From contig JBIJDH010000011.1 of NCBI GenBank assembly GCA_044344255.1, positions 179,491-243,490 on the forward strand: DNA of 64,000 nucleotides, written 5' to 3'. The DNA comes from Myxococcota bacterium (GTDB taxonomy: Bacteria > Myxococcota_A > UBA796 > UBA2385). The position numbers and the translations under genes were made by a program. Each line of letters opens with the position of its first letter. The first letter of the stretch is position 1. The notes beneath the pieces are model-generated. The model made no database searches. It was not told where the DNA came from and worked only from the letters and a program-made list of their open reading frames with translations. Shown here one piece after another: positions 5,702 through 15,683 of this stretch.

Positions 5702-5920
5702 CGCCCCACCTCGCAGCTCCGCGCCGCCATCTCGGCGTCGGCGGGGCGCTCGAGCCGCGCCGCGCCGATCTCCGTCTCCACGCGCTCGATCTCGAAGCTC
5801 AGGAGCCCGCCGCCGCACGTCGAGGCCGCGCCCTCCTGCGACCTGTGGACGCTGTGCATCCGGCAGATGAACTCCTCCCCGAAACGGTCGACGATGTCCG
5901 ACGACCAGGCGGGGTCGACG
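5702..5920 (-). pseudogene. decayed, internally deleted copy of the 3' part of the lipoprotein gene at 13979..14707
   Basis: Translates IVDRFGEEFICRMHSVHRSQEGAASTCGGGLLSFEIERVETEIGAARLERPADAEMAARSCE versus VVDRFGDEFVYRMHNIHRS[...]EEGATSKCGGGLLSFEIERVEAETGPVRLERPADAEMAARSCE; stop codon lost. Confidence 0.8.
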
Positions 5921-6109: not shown

Positions 6110-9100
6110 TCAGGTCCGACCGCGCCGTCGCGCCAACTGAGAGGCGTAGATCCGCCGCAAGAAGTCGTACAAGACCAGCTCCGTCGCCCGCTGAGCGCCA
6201 CGTAAGAGGCGGTTGGCCTGCATATGGAGGTAGCTCGCCCCGAGATCTTGGATGGTCACGCAGAGCTGGCCCTGCCGAGCCGCGGCCCGCAGCTCCTGAA
6301 CGATCGGGGCCAGGCGGAGGGACCGCGCTGCCAACAGAGAGAGCCCGGGCGCCAACGCATCGTCTCCTGACCCGGAGGGATCCCAGAGCAAGTCAAGACC
6401 TGGCCGCTGGGCGCGATAATTGGCGTCGAGCTGCCGCTCGAAGGGGGGCGTGACGCCAAACTCCTCGGCGAACCCGCGCCCAATCGCCACCACCAGCGCT
6501 GACTTTTCGGGGATGCTGAGGCCGATATCGTTGAGCAGGAGATCCATTCCGCGCAGGGCGAAGCGCCACCGCAAGTCATTGCCCTCATCACCGGACAGGA
6601 GCTCCACAATCCCGAGCGCGGCCTCGCTGTCGGCCTCGAAGAGCCGCTCGGAGAGGGCCATCCCGACGGGGCCACCGTAACGCTCGACCTCCCGCTCGTA
6701 GGTGTCGAGCTGGAGCCGCCAGACCTGCCCACCCTCCAGGAGCGGCGCGACACACGCATAGAGGGCCGGGGCGATCTGCTGCCACAAGAGCCCTGGTTCT
6801 GCCTCGATGCGGAGGCGCAGATGCCAGTCGGGGTCACCGTACCGAATGAAGAACCAACGCTCGGCCCCCGCTTCCCGGGCGAGCTCCGTCAGGGGACGCA
6901 CCACCCGCCGGAGCACCTCATCCGCCGTGGCGGTGCCGGTGTAGAGCTTTGCGTAGAGCCAGCGCGAGCCCGGAGCAAAGGCGCGCGGGAAGAGGTGGAG
7001 CGCCGGGCTCTCTCCCGGCCGGGTCACCCGCGGGGGGCTCCCGGTCGGGGCCGTCGGGCCGACCGCGGCGGCATCAGGGATCACGGGGAAATCAGGGATC
7101 ACGGGGACATCAGAGGTCACGAGGAAGGGGACCACCAGCTCATGCGTAAAACGACCCTCCGAACCCTCACAGAGCAGCTCGTCATAGGCCGGAAAGACCT
7201 CGCGGAGCTCGACCTCGGCCCCCTCCTCGAGCAGCGCCGCGAAGGCCTCCACGCTCAGAACATTGTCGAAGTCGATGGGGAGCGTGTTGTCGCCTTGTCC
7301 GAAGAGCAGGCGACACGGGAGGGCGCGCTGCTTCCGGAGCTCCTGGGCGCGCAGGAAGCGCTCATCCCCCCTCGCGAGGCGCAGTGGCCGGACTTCGGAG
7401 GGCTGCAACACCCAGGTCGCGAGGGAGAGCACCAACCTCCCGTGAGAGACCCGAGGCAGGAAGGGCGCTCTCGCTAACGATCCCCAGCTCCAGCAGAGAT
7501 TGTACCCGTCGCTCCGTAAGAGGCACAGGAGCTGGTAGAGGCCCAGGTCGGCGCCAGCAAAGTCGTGGGTGTTCGCCATACGGGGGATGATGGTTCGATT
7601 GAGCCGCACGGATCGCAGACGCACCCGACCGCCCTGCACCGAGATCATCAGATCCTGTACTGGGATCTGCGCTTCCGCCTCGGCCGCGGAGGCCCCCAGG
7701 TACGGGATCTCGTAGCGCCGCAGGCGGGGCCGGCAGATGATGTTTCCCGCGCGCCCCGCCGGCAGATGGATGATCTCTGCGAAGATCTCGTCCGGAGAGG
7801 ATGCCTCCTCTTGGCGCATATGCGCCTCGACCCCGGCACGAAGCAAAGGGTCCACATGGCAGAAGCGCCCGAGCAAGTTCGAGCCCCCCGCGGAGGCCTC
7901 CAACCACAGCTTGAATCGCCCCGCGCTCGCTTCCGCCGCCGAGGGCGCCGCCACGCTGGCTCGTACGGCGATTGAGGCGGGGAGCGGCACCGGCGCCGTC
8001 ACCCGAAGCGCATGGAGATCATCCTGACAAAGTATGATCTCCCTGGCACCGTCTTGGATTGCTCTGTGCATTATGCGCAATAGATGGGGATCACGCGGGT
8101 CGCCTGGGGAGGGGCGGGCCGCGGCCGGAAAGTCCAGCTTCGCCAGGAGGGGTGAGCACTCTTCCGCTCCGGCTCCGACCCCGCCGATGCCACAGTCCTC
8201 ATCGAGGGCCTCCAGCAGCGGCACCTCGCGCCCCTCATACCGAGCCACAAACCTGCGCCTGAAGTCTTCGAAGGGGTCAACCGCGGGGCTGAGGCTGTGC
8301 AGGAGCGCCAGCCCCCGCCTCATCTCATCGATGAGCTCTCGCCCCAGGGTCGCCTCGAGGGCCGGCCTGGTCATGTCCACCTGGAGGAGCCGAGGCAGCT
8401 CCACCTGCGCAGGCAGCCGCTCCAGCGAGGCGGCGATACGGAGATAATGATCCGGAGGCGCACCCAGACCCCCTCTGTCGAGGTCCTCGATCAGGATGGC
8501 CGTCTCCCGGAGGATATCGGCGAATGGTCTGCTCTCTTCTGAAGCCGAGAGGCATTCGATCAAGGAGGAGATGGGCTGTGCCGCCGTGACCGATGGCTCG
8601 AGCAGAGGCACCAGAAGCTGACTGTCGATGAGCGTATGAACGAAGGCATACGCCTCGACCAGGCTGATCTCGTCAGAGACAAGCACGGAGCAGAGCTCGT
8701 CGAAACCGGCTGTGGCGCGCGCCCTCTCTAGTATCGCCAACAGGTAGTCCGTCGGCTCCACAGAGACGAGGTGATAGCTTCGCTCTCGACCCCCACGCCA
8801 TTCAACATACCGGATCCGACCTGCGGACCCGTAGAGGCTTGTGTTCGTGGTATACGAGAAGCTGCGCCGCAGCGCGCGGTCGGCGGTCAGCGCCTCTGTG
8901 AATACACAGAGGTAGTGCATGTCCAAGCGGCTGTGGCGCCGAAGCTCGGACCGCGGAGACAAGGAGAGCACAGTTGCTGCGCCCATGGTGCCGGTGGAGG
9001 TGCCAGCGAAGAGGCCAAAGGGGGTGGGCCGGCCAGCCATGCGCTGGAGGTAGCGCACGAGTGCCCTCTCGACCCTCGAGCCCCGATCGCTGTCCGGCGC

Positions 9101-9469
9101 CGCAAGCCAGGTGGGCAAATGCGCGCTGAGGCTGGGAGAGGCGACGAAGAGCGCCTCCCGAATGACCGGGTCCTTGAGCTTCTCCCGCAAGAAGGCGCGC
9201 AGTCGCTGCCTGTCCTGCGCCAGCGCAGGGCCGAGCTCCGCTTGAGCTTCGGCTTCGCTCGCCCCCACCGCGCAGAGACCGTCGCCGAAGGCGAGGAGCA
9301 CCCCAATGGGCAGGAGCGGAGTACGAAAGGCAAAAAAGTCCCCCGCTATGAAGGTTAACGGGGAGGTCAACGGGGAGCTCAACAGGGGGCTCAACAGGGG
9401 GCTCAACGGGGGTGTCACCGACGGAGAGATGGCGTTCCCTCGAGAGAGACCGCCCCGACGCGCGCGCAT
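6110..9469 (-). CDS. lanB: lantibiotic dehydratase, full-length LanB (glutamylation + elimination domains)
   Basis: FRTPLLP, EALFVASPSL, RMAGRPTPFGLFAG, LLGRF, GNIICRP, FLPRV, GDNTL; C-terminal WLYAKLY, WFFIRYGDPDWHLRLR, YEREVERYGG, HMQANRL; start uncertain. Confidence 0.92.
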   Translation of the reverse strand: MRARRGGLSRGNAISPSVTPPLSPLLSPLLSSPLTSPLTFIAGDFFAFRTPLLPIGVLLAFGDGLCAVGASEAEAQAELGPALAQDRQRLRAFLREKLKDPVIREALFVASPSLSAHLPTWLAAPDSDRGSRVERALVRYLQRMAGRPTPFGLFAGTSTGTMGAATVLSLSPRSELRRHSRLDMHYLCVFTEALTADRALRRSFSYTTNTSLYGSAGRIRYVEWRGGRERSYHLVSVEPTDYLLAILERARATAGFDELCSVLVSDEISLVEAYAFVHTLIDSQLLVPLLEPSVTAAQPISSLIECLSASEESRPFADILRETAILIEDLDRGGLGAPPDHYLRIAASLERLPAQVELPRLLQVDMTRPALEATLGRELIDEMRRGLALLHSLSPAVDPFEDFRRRFVARYEGREVPLLEALDEDCGIGGVGAGAEECSPLLAKLDFPAAARPSPGDPRDPHLLRIMHRAIQDGAREIILCQDDLHALRVTAPVPLPASIAVRASVAAPSAAEASAGRFKLWLEASAGGSNLLGRFCHVDPLLRAGVEAHMRQEEASSPDEIFAEIIHLPAGRAGNIICRPRLRRYEIPYLGASAAEAEAQIPVQDLMISVQGGRVRLRSVRLNRTIIPRMANTHDFAGADLGLYQLLCLLRSDGYNLCWSWGSLARAPFLPRVSHGRLVLSLATWVLQPSEVRPLRLARGDERFLRAQELRKQRALPCRLLFGQGDNTLPIDFDNVLSVEAFAALLEEGAEVELREVFPAYDELLCEGSEGRFTHELVVPFLVTSDVPVIPDFPVIPDAAAVGPTAPTGSPPRVTRPGESPALHLFPRAFAPGSRWLYAKLYTGTATADEVLRRVVRPLTELAREAGAERWFFIRYGDPDWHLRLRIEAEPGLLWQQIAPALYACVAPLLEGGQVWRLQLDTYEREVERYGGPVGMALSERLFEADSEAALGIVELLSGDEGNDLRWRFALRGMDLLLNDIGLSIPEKSALVVAIGRGFAEEFGVTPPFERQLDANYRAQRPGLDLLWDPSGSGDDALAPGLSLLAARSLRLAPIVQELRAAARQGQLCVTIQDLGASYLHMQANRLLRGAQRATELVLYDFLRRIYASQLARRRGRT
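9355..9412. repeat. 12-bp degenerate tandem repeat (about 5 copies) near the 5' end of lanB
   Basis: ttaacggggagg/tcaacggggagc/tcaacagggggc/tcaacagggggc/tcaacggggg; encodes PLSPLLSPLLSSPLTSPLT. Confidence 0.75.
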
Positions 9470-9497
9470 CGGGGCGGTTGAGCTCGGAGTGCGTGGA

Positions 9498-9617
9498 TCA
9501 GTAGGTCCACTTGATCTTGTTGTAGGAGCTGGTCTCGCCGGCCTTCACGTTGGTCTTCACCTTGAAGTCCTTGGCGGTGGTCTTGACGAGGTTGAGCTTG
9601 GGGGTGGTGGTGTCCAT
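9498..9617 (-). CDS. putative RiPP precursor peptide, 39 aa (MDTTTPKLNLVKTTAKDFKVKTNVKAGETSSYNKIKWTY)
   Basis: GGAG RBS just upstream of ATG 9617, strongly GC3-biased codons, immediately upstream of lanB, Ser/Thr-containing C-terminus after KVKTNVKAG. Confidence 0.8.
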   Translation of the reverse strand: MDTTTPKLNLVKTTAKDFKVKTNVKAGETSSYNKIKWTY

Positions 9618-9687
9618 GAGTGCTCCGGAGTGAACGGCATCAGCGCCTGTTGAATGGATACCCGGCGCCCCCGGCCCGCACATCCTT

Positions 9688-9730
9688 CATGGATCTTACA
9701 TCCATGGATCTTACATCCATGGATCTCACA
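9688..9730. repeat. 15-bp tandem repeat (about 3 copies) overlapping the stop codon of the Cys-cluster gene; contains ATCCATGGAT palindromes
   Basis: catggatcttacatc catggatcttacatc catggatctcaca. Confidence 0.85.
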
Positions 9731-11078
9731 ACCGCTCGAGGAGCCCGAGGGCGAGGAGCCCGTCGAGGAGCTCGGCCGCCTGCTCCCAGGATCTCCCCGA
9801 CCACTCCTTGGCCTCCGCGGCCACGAAGCCCTGGCGCCGCGCATACAGGGTTCGGCCGAAGCGTAAGAGCTCCGGCTCATCGAAGGAGAGCTCCGTGGAC
9901 CCGGCGCTGATCTCGACGGTGGCCGCGCCGGTCTCCGAGAACAGGACACGCTCCTGAATCGGGAGCCTCGGGACCACCCGTAGCCGATCTTCGGGCTCGA
10001 CCGCCCGCGCCACGACCGGCCCCCCTTCGACCAGCAGGCCGTTCTTCCAAAGCCGGATGGCATCCTCCGCGGGTAGCATCCGATCCGGGAGCTTCAGCCC
10101 CTCCTCGGTGAGCGGCCCGCCTTCAAAGGCCAGGAGCGCGCTCCAGAGGTCGATCGACGCTACATGGACGTCGAGCGCGCCCTGCACGGGGGTGTAGGCG
10201 ACGCTCTCGTTCCCCTCTTCGTACTCCAGGGCCAGGCCCGGGCGGGCGGGGCGAAGGTGGCGAGGCGGAGCGATCGGGGACATCAGGCGGAGGCGGCGGG
10301 AGAGGGCCTCGGCCTCGGGGCCCACCCGCATCAGGACCTCCGACCAGGAGAGCCCCTCCACATCGGCGGCGCAGGCCTCGAAGAAGCTCAGCTCCCGCCC
10401 GGCCCAATCCCCCCACAGCTCCGCATGAAGCTCGGCGCTGATCGTTCCATCATCCTCGATCCAACCGCCAAAGGTCCTCGTGGTCACACGGTTTCGTGTC
10501 CCGTTCGACTGGAAGGCGGCCTGGTAGAAGCCTTGGTGGTGGAGGTGGCGGTTGGCGCAGTCCACCGAGAGCTTCTCCTCCACAAGGGCGAGCAAGAGGG
10601 TGAGCTGCTTCCAGACCTCCGCCCCGGGGATTCCATCTTCCATGAGGCAGAAGAATGTTTGACAGACGGCGTTACGATTCTCCCAGATCGTGCAATCACC
10701 GCTATCATAGTACGGACAACGCATTTCCAGGTCTGCGCCGAATTTTCCCGGGCTGGACTCATAACGGCGGTGGTAACGGGGCGAGGACTGTAGCCCGAAT
10801 GGACTGAGTCCGATGCGACGACCGATCTGTTCACGGAGGCGCGAGGCGCCCTCGCCACCCGCGAGCAGCGCTCGTCCGACAGCGAAATTCGGCACATCCG
10901 GCCAGTAGGTGCAGCACTTGACGCTCGGGAGAAAGGCGCGGCCGAGCCCGGTGGCCGGGGGCTTACACATCGCGCAGTCCCCGCAGGTGGCTTTGGGCTC
11001 AGAGCCGAAACGCCGACCGACGGCCTGTTCCATCCAGCGGGTGTAGGTGGAGTTCAGCGCGGAGCTCGGGTGGGACAC
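9726..11078 (-). CDS. YkgJ/FliB-like cysteine-cluster (putative Fe-S) protein with C-terminal winged-helix/RRE-like region
   Basis: TCGDCAMC...KCCTY, then RCPYY...DCTIWENRNAVCQTFFC (CP..CxI...RxxxCxxF pattern); ends WEQAAELLDGLLALGLLE. Confidence 0.65.
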   Translation of the reverse strand: MSHPSSALNSTYTRWMEQAVGRRFGSEPKATCGDCAMCKPPATGLGRAFLPSVKCCTYWPDVPNFAVGRALLAGGEGASRLREQIGRRIGLSPFGLQSSPRYHRRYESSPGKFGADLEMRCPYYDSGDCTIWENRNAVCQTFFCLMEDGIPGAEVWKQLTLLLALVEEKLSVDCANRHLHHQGFYQAAFQSNGTRNRVTTRTFGGWIEDDGTISAELHAELWGDWAGRELSFFEACAADVEGLSWSEVLMRVGPEAEALSRRLRLMSPIAPPRHLRPARPGLALEYEEGNESVAYTPVQGALDVHVASIDLWSALLAFEGGPLTEEGLKLPDRMLPAEDAIRLWKNGLLVEGGPVVARAVEPEDRLRVVPRLPIQERVLFSETGAATVEISAGSTELSFDEPELLRFGRTLYARRQGFVAAEAKEWSGRSWEQAAELLDGLLALGLLERL

Positions 11079-11101
11079 GGGCAGCTCAACCTGGGCAGGG
11101 G

Positions 11102-12019
11102 CTAATCAGGAGGGGTGGCGAGGGAGGCGCGCCCGAGGGCGAGCTCCGCGAGGTCATTGAGGTACTGAGTCTGATCTTCGTTCAGGGCCCCACGCTCCAG
11201 GGCATCGATGAGCTCGGTGACCTGCTCGGGCTCGTTGAGGGCGCACAGGATGCCGTCCATCTCGGGACGGGAGAGGGCGTAGCGGTAATAGTCGGTGATG
11301 TGCGGGCGCCAATGCGAGGGTCCGAGGCCCAGCGCCGCGGAGTCGGGTTCGGACAGATATCCGTGCGTGCTCTTGAAGTTGTAGAGGAGGGCCGGGCTAC
11401 CCTTCGAGAGCTGCGGAAAGACCTCCTCCTCGGCCCCGCGGTGAAGCGGGTTGTACCGAAGAAATCCGATGTCGATCAGGCCGTGGTTGAGGGCGAGAAC
11501 TCCGGCTCGGCGGTCGTGGAAGCTCGCGCCGATCGCCCGCGAGGCGGGCTCGCGCTCGGGTTGATGCGCGCGGTACTCTCCGAGCCGCACCAGGAGGTCG
11601 GCGGCATAAGCGCCCCCGGCGATCGCGAGATCGACCCGCTCCAGCCCTTTGATCGCGGCCACGACCTCGTGGAAGGGCGCGTGACAGAATTCGGGCTGAG
11701 TGACGTAGGAGACGACGCCCACCACGACCTCGTCGCGTACGCCCCCGCCCCGCTCGAAGAGCAGCTCGAGGCCCCGCCGTAGCTTCTCGTAGAGCGGCCA
11801 GTGCATGTCAGCCGTCACAAAGAAGAAGTTGACGCCCGCGTCGAAGGCCGCGGGGACCACCCGCGGGTCGCCAACCAGGCCAAGGCAGACGGGGCTCACC
11901 CCGACCGGGAGGCCGCCCATGCGGTAACGGTGCCTCAAGCTGGGGAGGCTGCGCGCGTTGACCGGGGATTGACGCCGAGGCGGGAGCATCGGGGCGAAGA
12001 GTAGTCGGGGACAATCCAC
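11102..12019 (-). CDS. aldo/keto reductase-like protein
   Basis: VSPVCLG, AFDAGVNFFF, IGASFHDR, RYNPLHRGAE, YRYALSRP..DGILCALNEPEQV resemble AKR TIM-barrel segments; start uncertain. Confidence 0.65.
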   Translation of the reverse strand: MDCPRLLFAPMLPPRRQSPVNARSLPSLRHRYRMGGLPVGVSPVCLGLVGDPRVVPAAFDAGVNFFFVTADMHWPLYEKLRRGLELLFERGGGVRDEVVVGVVSYVTQPEFCHAPFHEVVAAIKGLERVDLAIAGGAYAADLLVRLGEYRAHQPEREPASRAIGASFHDRRAGVLALNHGLIDIGFLRYNPLHRGAEEEVFPQLSKGSPALLYNFKSTHGYLSEPDSAALGLGPSHWRPHITDYYRYALSRPEMDGILCALNEPEQVTELIDALERGALNEDQTQYLNDLAELALGRASLATPPD

Positions 12020-12050
12020 GAGTCAAGCATCCGGGTCGGAGGGGGGTCCG

Positions 12051-13799
12051 TCAGTCGCGGCGCGAGGTGCGAAGGCTGGCCAGGACGGTCGCGAGGAGCC
12101 CGAGGAGCAGGCCGCCCCCAGAGGTTGATGTGCTACAGACCCCCTCCTTCGGTCCTGCTCGCACAACGCTCCCGCCACCGTCGTCACCGTCGGGCAGCGC
12201 CTCGCCCCCTGAGCCATCCTCCCCCGGGTCGGCCGAATCGACGACCGCCGTGTCGGCCCCGCCTCCGTCACTCGCCCCCGTGTCTGTCGTGACCCCCGTG
12301 TCGGTCGTCGCCCCCGTGTCGGTTCCGCCCGTGTCTCCGAGACCCTCGTCCACCTCGCCGTCGCAGTCCTGATCCAACCCGTCCGACAGCTCTGTCGCCC
12401 CGGGATAGATGGAGGGATCGGCGTCGTTACAGTCGCCTGCGTCCTCCGACCACCCGTCCAGGTCGTCGTCGGTCGCGCTCATAGACGACAGGAAGACATA
12501 GACCAGCCCCTCGTCTGCGGCCGCCGCCGTGCCGTAGGGGGCGGAGACGGCCAGATCGGGGAGGCCATCTCCGTTCCAGTCCCCGCCCGTCGTGACCGCG
12601 GCGCCAAAGTCGTCACCGGTGGCGGTGGAGGAGGCCGTCCAGGAGGGCGTTGCAGCCAGACCCGTAGCGCTCCCCGGGTAGATCGCGACGAAGCCCGATC
12701 CGGTGACAGGATCCCCGGCCATGGCGGTCAGGACGAGGTCGGTGAATCCATCACCATCGAAGTCTCTGCCGCCCGCGATGCCAGCGCCGAGCTCCAACAT
12801 GGACGGATCTCCGAGGATGGACCAGTCCGGGAGGGCTGCGGGGCCCGTCGGGCTGCCGAGGTAGATGTCGACGCGCCCCTGCCTCGGGTTGGTGTCCTCC
12901 CAGATGGGGGCGCTCACCGCGAAGTCGGCGAATCCGTCCGCGTTGAGGTCTCCGAGCCCGGTGACCTGCATCCCGAATTCTGTCCAATCCTGTCCAAGGA
13001 AAGTCCCGTCGACGGTGGCGAGCTCTCGAAACCCACTCCCCCACCGCTGGTAGATGTGTACCGAGCCATAGGAAGAAGGCTCCATGGCGTCCCCCACGGC
13101 AATGTCGTCGAAGCCGTCTCCATCGACGTCTCCGATGCCGGCCACAGAGTAGCCGAAATAGGGGTCTACCCCAGCCAAGGTTTTCCAGTAGGAAGTTAAC
13201 CCGGTCGAGGAGCCCATCACGACGAGGGCATAACCATCGCGATCACCGTCGTCCTCGGCCGAGGTCATCGGCGCGCCGACGATGACGTCGTCGTAGCCAT
13301 CTCCATTGGGGTCGCCTGCGGCGGCGAGACCGTAACCACCCATGCCGACGTCTTCTCCCTCAGAGAAGAGCTCCACGGAGAAGCTCGGGACAAGGGCCGG
13401 GCCCGTCGGCCCTCCATAAAAGGCGTAGAGGGCGCCCGAGCCCGTCCCTCCTTTCGGGGCCGCGACCACGATGTCGGCGTAGCCATCGCTGTTCACGTCC
13501 CCGGCGCCTGCCACCGACGAGCCGAACTGCCCCTCGGCCAGTCCCCCCGTGTATGACCAGGCGGGCATGAGGTCGAGCCCTGTGGGGCCACCGAGGAACA
13601 GATAGACCACCCCGTCCTGATGACTGACCACGGTGGCGGTTGGCGCGGCCACGAGCAGGTCGTCGAAGCCGTCGCCGTTCACGTCTCCGGCCGACGCGAG
13701 GGAGACACCGAGGTAGTGGTCCGCCACGCCGAGGCCGATGACCTGGGTGGCGGTCGTGAGCGAGAGGAGGCCAAGCGCGGGAAACATCGGCGGGACCAA
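12051..13799 (-). CDS. FG-GAP/integrin-alpha beta-propeller protein with DCND metal-binding motif and MYXO-CTERM-like tail
   Basis: Seven GD(V/L/F/W/P)(N/D)(G/S/A)DG..D...AP-type repeats; C-terminus GVCSTSTSGGGLLLGLLATVLASLRTSRRD; AAGGAG before TTG 13799. Confidence 0.85.
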   Translation of the reverse strand: MVPPMFPALGLLSLTTATQVIGLGVADHYLGVSLASAGDVNGDGFDDLLVAAPTATVVSHQDGVVYLFLGGPTGLDLMPAWSYTGGLAEGQFGSSVAGAGDVNSDGYADIVVAAPKGGTGSGALYAFYGGPTGPALVPSFSVELFSEGEDVGMGGYGLAAAGDPNGDGYDDVIVGAPMTSAEDDGDRDGYALVVMGSSTGLTSYWKTLAGVDPYFGYSVAGIGDVDGDGFDDIAVGDAMEPSSYGSVHIYQRWGSGFRELATVDGTFLGQDWTEFGMQVTGLGDLNADGFADFAVSAPIWEDTNPRQGRVDIYLGSPTGPAALPDWSILGDPSMLELGAGIAGGRDFDGDGFTDLVLTAMAGDPVTGSGFVAIYPGSATGLAATPSWTASSTATGDDFGAAVTTGGDWNGDGLPDLAVSAPYGTAAAADEGLVYVFLSSMSATDDDLDGWSEDAGDCNDADPSIYPGATELSDGLDQDCDGEVDEGLGDTGGTDTGATTDTGVTTDTGASDGGGADTAVVDSADPGEDGSGGEALPDGDDGGGSVVRAGPKEGVCSTSTSGGGLLLGLLATVLASLRTSRRD

Positions 13800-13978
13800 G
13801 GCGGAGCTCCTTCAGGGCGGGGCCGCCCGCAACCAAAGGTTGCACGCTCGGACCACGTTGTCAACGACCACACTGACAAAATGGCGCAATACCCCTGCTT
13901 TGTTCGCGCCCGGGGGTGGTCCGTGTATCGGTGCCGGTGGACGAGCCCCCCGTCGGCGTATGAGCGCCGACGGCGCCC

Positions 13979-14707
13979 CTACTCGCAGCTCCGCGCCGCC
14001 ATCTCGGCGTCGGCGGGGCGCTCGAGCCGCACCGGGCCGGTCTCTGCCTCCACGCGCTCGATCTCGAAGCTCAGGAGCCCGCCGCCGCACTTCGAGGTCG
14101 CGCCTTCCTCCAACGGCCGCTCGGTGTAGGCGGCGATGACCGTCACGCGCCAGAGGAGACCGTCGATCCAGAGGTCATCGGCCCCGCCAGCGTCGATCAC
14201 CACCTCACCCTGATCGGAGGGGAAGACGGGGCTGAGCCAGCGCCGCTCCACGCCGTCCTCCTCCGAGCGGTGGATGTTGTGCATGCGGTAGACGAACTCA
14301 TCCCCGAACCGATCGACCACGGCTTCGTTCCGATCGGCTCCCCACAGGGCCCACACGAGGTCTACGTCATCGGAGAGCGCGAGGCCGCTTGGGGCGCCGG
14401 TGGCGGAGGGGGTGACCGAGAGGGTGAGCGCCGTGTCGGCGAAGCGCGAGAGGTCGGTGACCGCGGGGCTGTGGACCTCGAGCGCCCAGGCCTCCTCCTC
14501 ACCCTCGAGGGTCAACGACCATTCCCGCTCGGCGCCAGTGACGCGGAGCAGGCCCGACTCCTCCCAAGGCCCCAAGGATGGGTCCACGGTGAAGTCTGCC
14601 TCCACGACCGCCGCCTCGAGCTGCCGCCCCTCGAGGCTGTTGTTGGGGAGACAACCGGTGAAGGGCACGAGGAGGGCGAGCACGACGGGAGGGCGGCGGA
14701 CGTCCAT
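13979..14707 (-). CDS. hypothetical lipoprotein
   Basis: MDVRRPPVVLALLVPFTGC lipoprotein signal; ATG at 14707; paralogous remnant at 5702-5920. Confidence 0.7.
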   Translation of the reverse strand: MDVRRPPVVLALLVPFTGCLPNNSLEGRQLEAAVVEADFTVDPSLGPWEESGLLRVTGAEREWSLTLEGEEEAWALEVHSPAVTDLSRFADTALTLSVTPSATGAPSGLALSDDVDLVWALWGADRNEAVVDRFGDEFVYRMHNIHRSEEDGVERRWLSPVFPSDQGEVVIDAGGADDLWIDGLLWRVTVIAAYTERPLEEGATSKCGGGLLSFEIERVEAETGPVRLERPADAEMAARSCE

Positions 14708-14918
14708 GGGAGCTCCAGGCAGGAAGGAACTAGCTCGAGCGAGCCACACCGAAGCACACGACGTGCCAGCGAGCCGTGGTGCAGATCGCCGGAGAGCGCC
14801 CGCGGTCTGTGGAGCAGAACCCTGACATCGCTGTCCCGCTGGCGCGGCTCGGGCCGGCATCGAATGGCATCCCCGCCCTGCCGTCGACCGGCTACACCCG
14901 GAAGGTAGAAGGCAGCCC

Positions 14919-15683
14919 ATGACCGCCCTGATCCTCCTCGCGCTCTCGCTCCTACCCCCCGCCCACGCCGAGACCGAGCCGGAGGCCGCCGCCGCCGAGC
15001 ACAAGCGCCCGCCGTCCCAAGGTCAGGGGGAGAAAGGGCAGAAGGGCAAGGGGGGCAAGCACGGCAAGAAGGGCAAGAAGGGCAAGCCCGCCGAGCCCGA
15101 GTGGAAGAAGGAGGTCTACGCGGCCCCCTCGGCCGGCCTGACCACCTGGAATGACGGCACGAACACCACCACGGCCGCCAGCGTCGGCGCCGAGGCGGGG
15201 GTCCACTACTGGCAGGTCCACAAGCCCCTGCCCCGCTGGCAGGGGACCACCCGGGTGGCCGGCGACTACATCATGGGGAGCAACAACGTCTCGGGCTACG
15301 ACGTGCGGCTCGGCAGCTTCATCGGCCCTTCCTGGAAGTACGCCGGCATCCAATTCGGCCCCGACGTCTACCACAACCAGTACCGCTACGGCACCACCGA
15401 GCTGCCCCCCACCACCGGCGTCTCCGTGCCGGTCACCGCCACCGGCTGGTTCGACCCGGTCACCGTCTACGCCGGCATCGCGCCCTCCTGGTTCCTCTCC
15501 TCGGAGCGCGAATCGGTCAACTGGGGCGAGGCCGACTCGCTCGGCTTCGGCGACGAGTTCTCCATCCGCGCCGGGGCCTCGCTGCGGGTGGACAAGCTCC
15601 GCGTCGGGGTCGACTTCGTCCGCACCGAGACGGCCTACGGCACCCAGCAGGGATATGGCCTGAACATGGGCTACAATCGGTGA
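14919..15683 (+). CDS. secreted/outer-membrane beta-strand-rich protein with Lys/Gly-rich N-terminal segment
   Basis: Signal peptide ending AHA; alternating beta-strand pattern; C-terminal YGLNMGYNR. Confidence 0.6.
   Translation: MTALILLALSLLPPAHAETEPEAAAAEHKRPPSQGQGEKGQKGKGGKHGKKGKKGKPAEPEWKKEVYAAPSAGLTTWNDGTNTTTAASVGAEAGVHYWQVHKPLPRWQGTTRVAGDYIMGSNNVSGYDVRLGSFIGPSWKYAGIQFGPDVYHNQYRYGTTELPPTTGVSVPVTATGWFDPVTVYAGIAPSWFLSSERESVNWGEADSLGFGDEFSIRAGASLRVDKLRVGVDFVRTETAYGTQQGYGLNMGYNR

Follow-up and report, generated by a model that had tools for sequence, protein, structure and literature searches.

We analysed a window of 64,000 nucleotides from the genome of a lake bacterium of the Myxococcota (G000; 8.18 Mb, 95.24% complete), which carries a four-gene cluster for a peptide made by ribosomes and then modified post-translationally (RiPP): a full LanB dehydratase, a Cys-free precursor peptide, an eight-Cys protein and a protein of aldo-keto reductase (AKR) fold. 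This is a class I lanthipeptide cluster without its former cyclase and cysteine, a cyclase-less variant and not a separate class. The original prediction, drawn from the letters of the window, had proposed a new, free-standing RiPP class; however, the four-gene set was found again only in one sister locus (L052), and there with the cyclase LanC and a Cys-bearing peptide. That prediction also overlooked the general partnership of the AKR-like gene with peptide dehydratases, the winged helix, like a RiPP recognition element, at the end of the Cys protein, and the likeness of the core to Hcp. We put the chances at about even that a horizontally acquired class I-type cluster, minus LanC and the Cys-bearing tail of its peptide, is still working as a ring-less pathway with an AKR reductase. 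The AKR-fold partner, from an unstudied family, is the most valuable lead of the locus.

Gene order is conserved between the window and L052, with 69% identity in the AKR-fold protein, 67% in the Cys protein, 68% in the precursor and 64% in LanB. The LanC gene of L052 (10588-11880; His and Cys-His motifs visible) lies inverted between precursor and LanB, head to head with LanB, those of L062, L066 and L084 being co-oriented; no LanC remnant is visible in the 28-bp gap that takes its place in the window. The L052 precursor also extends further than that of the window and includes one Cys. In a FastTree phylogeny of 41 LanBs, with L147 as a long branch, the two enzymes are sisters (support 100), inside a 17-row clade with LanC in 12 rows. 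Loss of LanC in the lineage of the window is the simplest reading of this tree and of the sister locus, as far as sequence comparison goes. Two copies of a 141-bp repeat flank an 8.3-kb block made up of the cluster and an FG-GAP gene, and strong matches of the AKR family were seen in 2 of 154 genomes of the order; 29 weak ones, often with stops and at E of about 1e-22 to 1e-28, were not counted as members. The bracketing repeats suggest insertion of the block and, with this narrow distribution, fit its acquisition as an island. Conservation of the four-gene set, proposed as a check in the original prediction, was found in part: the set does recur, in L052, but in just that one locus besides the window among the 160 AKR-family loci fetched.

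The dehydratase itself is well preserved. Both domains of a full LanB are present as had been predicted (PF04738, E 1e-149; PF14028, E 2e-65, Pfam), the protein can be aligned to MadB, MibB and NisB, and it retains 78 of the 81 columns that at least 90% of 39 relatives share; the motifs with Arg, Tyr, Asp and His which we take to be catalytic in NisB are included. Its first ~40 codons are a low-complexity 12-bp tandem repeat, the true start may lie further in, and no Shine-Dalgarno (SD)-like motif is evident upstream of the ATG. A genome-wide search for LanC, also proposed originally, found none in the 95.24%-complete genome: a Pfam search was blank, as was its control, and a custom hidden Markov model (HMM) of nine LanC sequences, run against all six frames, gave no match at E ≤ 10. 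At other loci the custom HMM picks up distant LanC-like proteins with E ≤ 1e-43. Outside G000, absence of LanC means 'not found' only, as single-protein searches missed the LanC-like match of G330 and Pfam missed the weak LanC of L090. G000 likewise yielded no YcaO (Pfam search; control positive in 5 of 14 genomes) and no HopA1 match for a class V dehydratase pair, and it holds a single PF04738 and a single PF14028 copy, fused in LanB, with no separate second elimination domain. The earlier class exclusions therefore stand. The LanB of class I lanthipeptides is here, LanC and core Cys are not; there is no YcaO and LanB is not split, which speaks against a thiopeptide and likewise a goadsporin-type cluster; the elimination domain is present, which excludes a pearlin; and with one fused PF14028 copy the cluster does not have the split LanB and separate PF14028-like pyridine synthase of pyritides. 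That LanC, YcaO, a protease and an exporter are missing among the four genes, which are co-oriented as described, is agreed by Pfam annotation and the custom HMM, and the 39-aa reading frame translates without Cys as stated.

The AKR-fold gene was followed by a contig search with an alignment of its family, from which we took 80 of the 94 confirmed genome loci and 80 of the 247 confirmed metagenome loci, the latter mostly short. Genome loci had LanB (32) or a pair of HopA1 lyase and APH kinase (22), none had both, one had LanC only and 25 had none of these; metagenome loci had LanB (23), LanC only (7) or neither (50). At loci of at least 12 kb, a dehydratase adjoins the AKR-fold gene in 42 of 53, the background being LanB above cut-off in 8 of 301 genomes of the phylum. 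HopA1 partners, with their kinases presumably the class V dehydratase pair and unrelated to LanB, are spread over at least three separate AKR lineages. For a reductase fold found alongside two dehydration chemistries that are unrelated, the simplest substrate is the product they share, dehydroalanine or dehydrobutyrine (Dha/Dhb), and our best inference from gene neighbourhood is that the AKR-fold protein is a candidate new dehydroamino-acid reductase, LanJ-like in function. As 0 of 4 LanB loci chosen regardless of AKR carry the gene, it would be an optional accessory. Two cassettes with the kinase and lyase were seen: in Archangiaceae (the L082-L126 group, e.g. L092:10001-15066) AKR-fold gene, JmjC, HopA1 lyase, APH kinase and a second cupin without LanC, and in acidobacteria (L105, L110, L123, L125 and L129) APH kinase, HopA1 lyase, a LanC-like protein and the AKR-fold gene.

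A TIM-barrel fold of AKR type is confirmed for the window protein by its predicted model (predicted local distance difference test, pLDDT, 92). The Pfam Aldo_ket_red match is sub-threshold (E 0.064), and hhalign against canonical AKRs gave 97.9%; the best structural match of the model has Z 20.4 and a root-mean-square deviation of 3.0 over 245 residues, the 29 top rows (Z 17-20.4) are nearly all AKRs, and Foldseek also returned AKRs. Homologues number 938 among 8000 scored candidates. The family has invariant polar residues of its own (D38, H40, Y44, Y72, H135, R137, R155, H160), although one family motif doubled as search pattern and its invariance across loci is partly circular. In the literature searched, whose coverage leaves subscription journals largely outside, we found neither an AKR nor a YkgJ protein described for clusters of this kind.

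Cys-free, LanC-free versions recur across several lineages. The 55 loci with both LanB and AKR comprise 23 with LanC, 10 without it at a flank of at least 2.5 kb (one of them, L147, with a fragmented LanB) and 22 beyond judgement, and the LanC-free ones are dispersed over the LanB tree. Among 43 hand-picked precursor candidates, 13 of the 18 at eight LanC-free loci (the window included; L080 and L128 so labelled though their flank is short on one side) were Cys-free, against 3 of the 21 at twelve LanC loci, while Ser and Thr greatly exceed Cys in both sets. Several loci carry further genes: next to LanB and AKR, L080 has an exporter, JmjC, a B12 radical S-adenosylmethionine (SAM) enzyme and as many as six precursors without Cys, L127 and L131 have C39 exporters, L077 (6871-14061) has YcaO, four short precursors, AKR and a full LanB without LanC, and L058 has a prenyltransferase-like gene upstream of LanB.

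The precursor of the window has a 27-aa leader, ending in a K-T-x-V-K-A-G motif, and after a putative cleavage site a predicted 12-aa core, ETSSYNKIKWTY, with four Ser/Thr, two Lys and no Cys. The last nine residues of the core align to a single Hcp strand, common to most of the 18 Hcp proteins compared, and scored at least 30 in 6 of the 18 against 4 of 4000 control pieces, in a comparison chosen after the likeness had been noticed. The L052 core had no Hcp-like score, and no Hcp gene was found in G000, G216 or G301. At L032 (G216:C162), two arrays of mini open-reading frames (mini-ORFs; 8244-8990 and 10822-11673), with an MKxKTKxKxG leader and a short core, surround a full-length eight-Cys relative. 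Five mini-genes in a row correspond, in gene order, to Hcp positions 15, 39, 56, 109 and 141, one of them reaching PF05638 at E 0.013, with single scores barely above control maxima. A mid Hcp strand is matched by the core of L162, and the L161 core looks to us like a Planctomycete DUF1559 pilin-like motif. About ten further mini-ORFs carrying the same leader motif are scattered over G000 (C5:33967, C26:123429, C51:11055, C69:28435, C70:166964, C73:27084, C75:3706, C77:98546, C77:156701, C83:266139), none with Cys in its core; some adjoin JmjC or 2-oxoglutarate (2OG)-oxygenase/ATP-grasp genes, and the C51 core resembles the N-terminal strand of Hcp. They could be substrates in trans.

For the eight-Cys protein, the CxxCxxCC family (PF03692) matched at E 0.05 (14.7 bits against a cut-off of 23; Atlas lead 0.81). 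Across 91 sequences seven Cys are invariant and one near-invariant, and the family has 1724 representatives at E ≤ 0.001. Residues 358-450 form a C-terminal winged helix of three strands and three helices, closest to that of the oxygenase MINA53 (Z 9.7), with Z 6.3-7.2 to the RiPP recognition elements of PqqD, PbtF and ThcOx; such an extension occurs in 32 of the 91 aligned members, and the relative P0199 carries PqqD domains. A structure search with the whole protein, the N-terminal domain not being queried alone, found no clear solved-fold match for that domain. An HMM of the C-terminal domain did not match the JmjC proteins beside similar leaders in G000, the single Cys protein as query found no related loci, and a complex prediction with the precursor, at a score of 0.07, speaks neither way. 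Short forms were present in 31 of 301 genomes of the phylum, and at L161 (2181-2384) and L162 (1375-1530), which have a Cys-free double-Gly precursor, a short eight-Cys gene lies between AKR gene and precursor. The nearest full-length genomic relative after L052, that of L032, is flanked by the mini-peptide arrays and has no dehydratase. FliB, as described in the accessible text of PMC8598068, has eight conserved Cys and methylates Lys in a SAM-dependent reaction with a [4Fe-4S] cluster, which makes lysine methylation the best guess here. The window protein shares with it eight conserved Cys arranged as CxxC...CC plus later Cys, a weak PF03692 match and a Lys-containing candidate substrate; it differs, by that description, in having 16-19 residues between CxxC and CC, where FliB has CX4CX3CC, and in its added winged-helix domain. 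That it is a FliB-type peptide lysine methyltransferase is a tentative assignment by analogy, less likely than not.

The cluster is real and probably functional, judging by its sequence in independent runs. The stretch was detected in 20 listed runs from 16 studies, freshwater by label, four of the runs being possible sources and no RNA run being among those listed, and four runs (X8, X11, X18 and X14) were compared with the window. Contigs of X8 and X11 (9378-12400) and of X18 (8990-9716) bridge the peptide-LanB junction without an indel, and X14 has a gap there. Mis-assembly as the reason for the absent LanC is ruled out, the junction being spanned in three other studies (X8, X11, X18). All reading frames are open, without indels in the four runs, and the window differs from the LanC-less X8/X11 allele at 14 sites of the three enzyme genes, nine of them synonymous, where 26% is expected (P = 0.003; P = 0.016 if the expectation is set to 33%). 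This synonymous excess argues against decay, and the cluster seems to be under selection. The coordinates of the locus are collected in Table 1; the genes flanking the cluster encode FG-GAP and MopE-motif surface proteins.

Table 1. Features of the cluster and its surroundings, in positions of the window.
Feature	Position	Strand	Length	Remarks
AKR-fold gene	12019-11102	minus	305 aa	likely start near codon 11 or 34
Eight-Cys YkgJ/FliB-like putative Fe-S protein	11078-9726	minus	450 aa	
Precursor peptide	9617-9498	minus	39 aa	GGAG upstream; GC content at third codon positions (GC3) 1.0; no Cys
Gap between peptide and LanB	9470-9497		28 bp	position of the ~1.3-kb LanC gene in L052
LanB dehydratase	9469-6110	minus	1119 aa	glutamylation and elimination domains; apparently intact
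Direct repeat, copy 1	5702-5842		141 bp	91% identity between copies
Direct repeat, copy 2	13974-14114		141 bp	3' end of the open-reading frame 13979-15004
Short tandem repeat	9357-9412			LanB start
Short tandem repeat	9688-9730			before precursor
Short tandem repeat	7073-7126			LanB interdomain linker

In the proposed pathway LanB would glutamylate Ser/Thr of the core via Glu-tRNA and then eliminate, giving up to four Dha/Dhb, as expected from knowledge of the family and an intact enzyme. With neither Cys nor LanC no thioether ring would form. The AKR-fold protein, going by its gene neighbourhood, would then most likely reduce their C=C bonds with NAD(P)H to give D-Ala or D-aminobutyrate (D-Abu), as a fourth kind of LanJ. 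Less firmly, the eight-Cys protein may bind the leader through its winged helix and modify the core, with lysine methylation of FliB type as the likeliest reaction, and putative unlinked genes would remove the leader and export the product. This peptide would be short and linear and contain reduced and/or dehydro residues, its sequence resembling one Hcp strand; the linear dehydro-peptide first envisaged, tailored by two other proteins, is the likeliest predicted product here too, and we judge that the two extra genes were rightly counted as pathway members. The pathway works like a class I dehydratase route, yet its product would not be a lanthipeptide.

Set against known systems, the window resembles class I clusters (NisB/NisC, MibB, MadB) in its two-domain LanB adjoining a leader-core precursor, its sister being complete class I, and departs from their PF04738, PF14028 and PF05147 complement in having no LanC in locus or genome, no peptide Cys and no linked protease or exporter. 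As with LanJ, a reductase-fold gene accompanies Ser/Thr dehydratases and Ser-rich, Cys-poor cores. The known enzymes, in the accessible text of PMC10373908, PMC11519912 and PMC9811515, are the Zn-dependent LanJA, the flavin-dependent LanJB and the F420H2-dependent LanJC, whereas the reductase predicted here is an AKR TIM barrel, none of their three folds. LanJ-made D-amino acids belong mainly to classes II and V in what is available of PMC11519912, while the partners of the AKR are class I LanB and a class V-type kinase/lyase. Cyanotins and Cys-free LanM precursors likewise pair a lanthipeptide dehydratase with peptides unable to form lanthionine, but theirs, by the accessible part of PMC7268733, is a LanM with a cyclase domain, and the LanB of the window comes without any cyclase. 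Pearlins and pyritides also combine a LanB homologue with a Cys-free precursor and no LanC, though with truncated or split LanBs in the available portion of PMC11002830; here the domains are fused and there is no separate PF14028 protein.

Several observations weigh against a working ring-less pathway with an AKR reductase. A nearby dehydratase is missing in 25 of the 80 genome loci and in 11 of the 53 long ones, and as the AKR loci are related to each other and were chosen by two motifs, these counts are not independent. The Asp/Tyr/Lys/His tetrad of AKRs is not kept, so that the protein is possibly non-catalytic (in sequence alignments Asp becomes Val/Leu, Lys becomes Val, Tyr becomes His or a shifted Tyr and the His region is unmatched), and the nucleotide-binding barrel SmbA resembles the model too (Z 18.2). 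The eight-Cys gene adjoins AKR in only 3 of 160 loci, its short forms stand mostly in non-RiPP contexts, and no second instance of the LanC-free form of the four-gene set was found. By the Pfam annotation of the window no protease or exporter is among or adjoining the four genes, the two C39 domains of G000 both being on contigs other than that of the cluster, and the synonymous test covers 14 sites and essentially one alternative allele. The replaced tetrad also favours a different role for the AKR-fold protein in a ring-less pathway, an unlikely one in our estimate, in which it reduces an N-terminal 2-oxoacyl group or, without catalysis, is a partner for binding, immunity or regulation. Cleavage of a leader just before Dha/Dhb leaves a 2-oxoacyl group, AKRs normally reduce ketones, and lactate caps are known with short-chain dehydrogenases (SDRs). 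The precedent comes from class I lanthipeptides, where an SDR installs N-terminal lactate in the accessible text of PMC7268733, and the predicted cores of L072, L077 and L117 do start with Thr. Most predicted cores, that of the window too, have no Ser/Thr start, however, the polar residues kept invariant within the family are what an active site would show, and long Ser-rich, Cys-poor cores suit iterative reduction.

The cluster would instead be a decaying relic, its LanC recently deleted, its peptide truncated and the remaining genes yielding nothing useful, only if open frames without indels in four runs, the synonymous excess, the retained LanB columns and the way in which Cys loss goes along with LanC loss in other lineages are all set aside; we consider this improbable, even though the closest relative is a complete class I cluster, tandem repeats precede the peptide and also lie where LanB starts, an SD-like motif is not evident at the LanB ATG, an exporter is lacking and the AKR family is strong in so few genomes of the order. 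A cyclic product has a slight probability. It could arise by a non-thioether link (e.g. Lys or Trp/Tyr onto Dha/Dhb) made by the eight-Cys protein, in keeping with two Lys beside four Ser/Thr in the core and an N-terminal domain without a clear solved-fold match; that protein, however, also occurs beside LanC (L052) and without a dehydratase (L032), and so is no substitute for LanC. Alternatively, the 5% of the genome left unassembled could hold a LanC that acts on other, Cys-bearing peptides, as L073 and L117 might suggest, where Cys-bearing precursors lie at LanC-free loci and LanC elsewhere in the genome, yet the custom HMM is blank in the 95%-complete G000 and the cores of its other leader-bearing mini-ORFs are free of Cys.

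Returning to the ring-less pathway with an AKR reductase, we would extend it, doubtful as the extension is, to a fourth, AKR-fold LanJ class for class I and class V-type peptides in Myxococcota, Planctomycetota and Acidobacteriota, with LanB plus AKR, without LanC and Cys, as a repeatedly evolved route to linear D-peptides, and here with a methylated product whose D-residues mimic one strand of Hcp, the tube protein of type VI secretion, in a cell where no Hcp was found. Should dehydroamino acids be reduced by the AKR-fold protein, D-amino-acid peptides would have a new class of enzyme to make them, with homologues in the hundreds and substrates that are short and easy to express, and D-residue formation would be shown on a LanB pathway. 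The window is a minimal test case, with one 39-aa peptide and three enzymes, and L052, with LanC and Cys, its natural paired control, so that the pair makes the evolution of a ring-less from a ringed peptide directly testable. The Hcp-like core, in turn, raises the testable question of whether peptides may copy a strand of a secretion tube.

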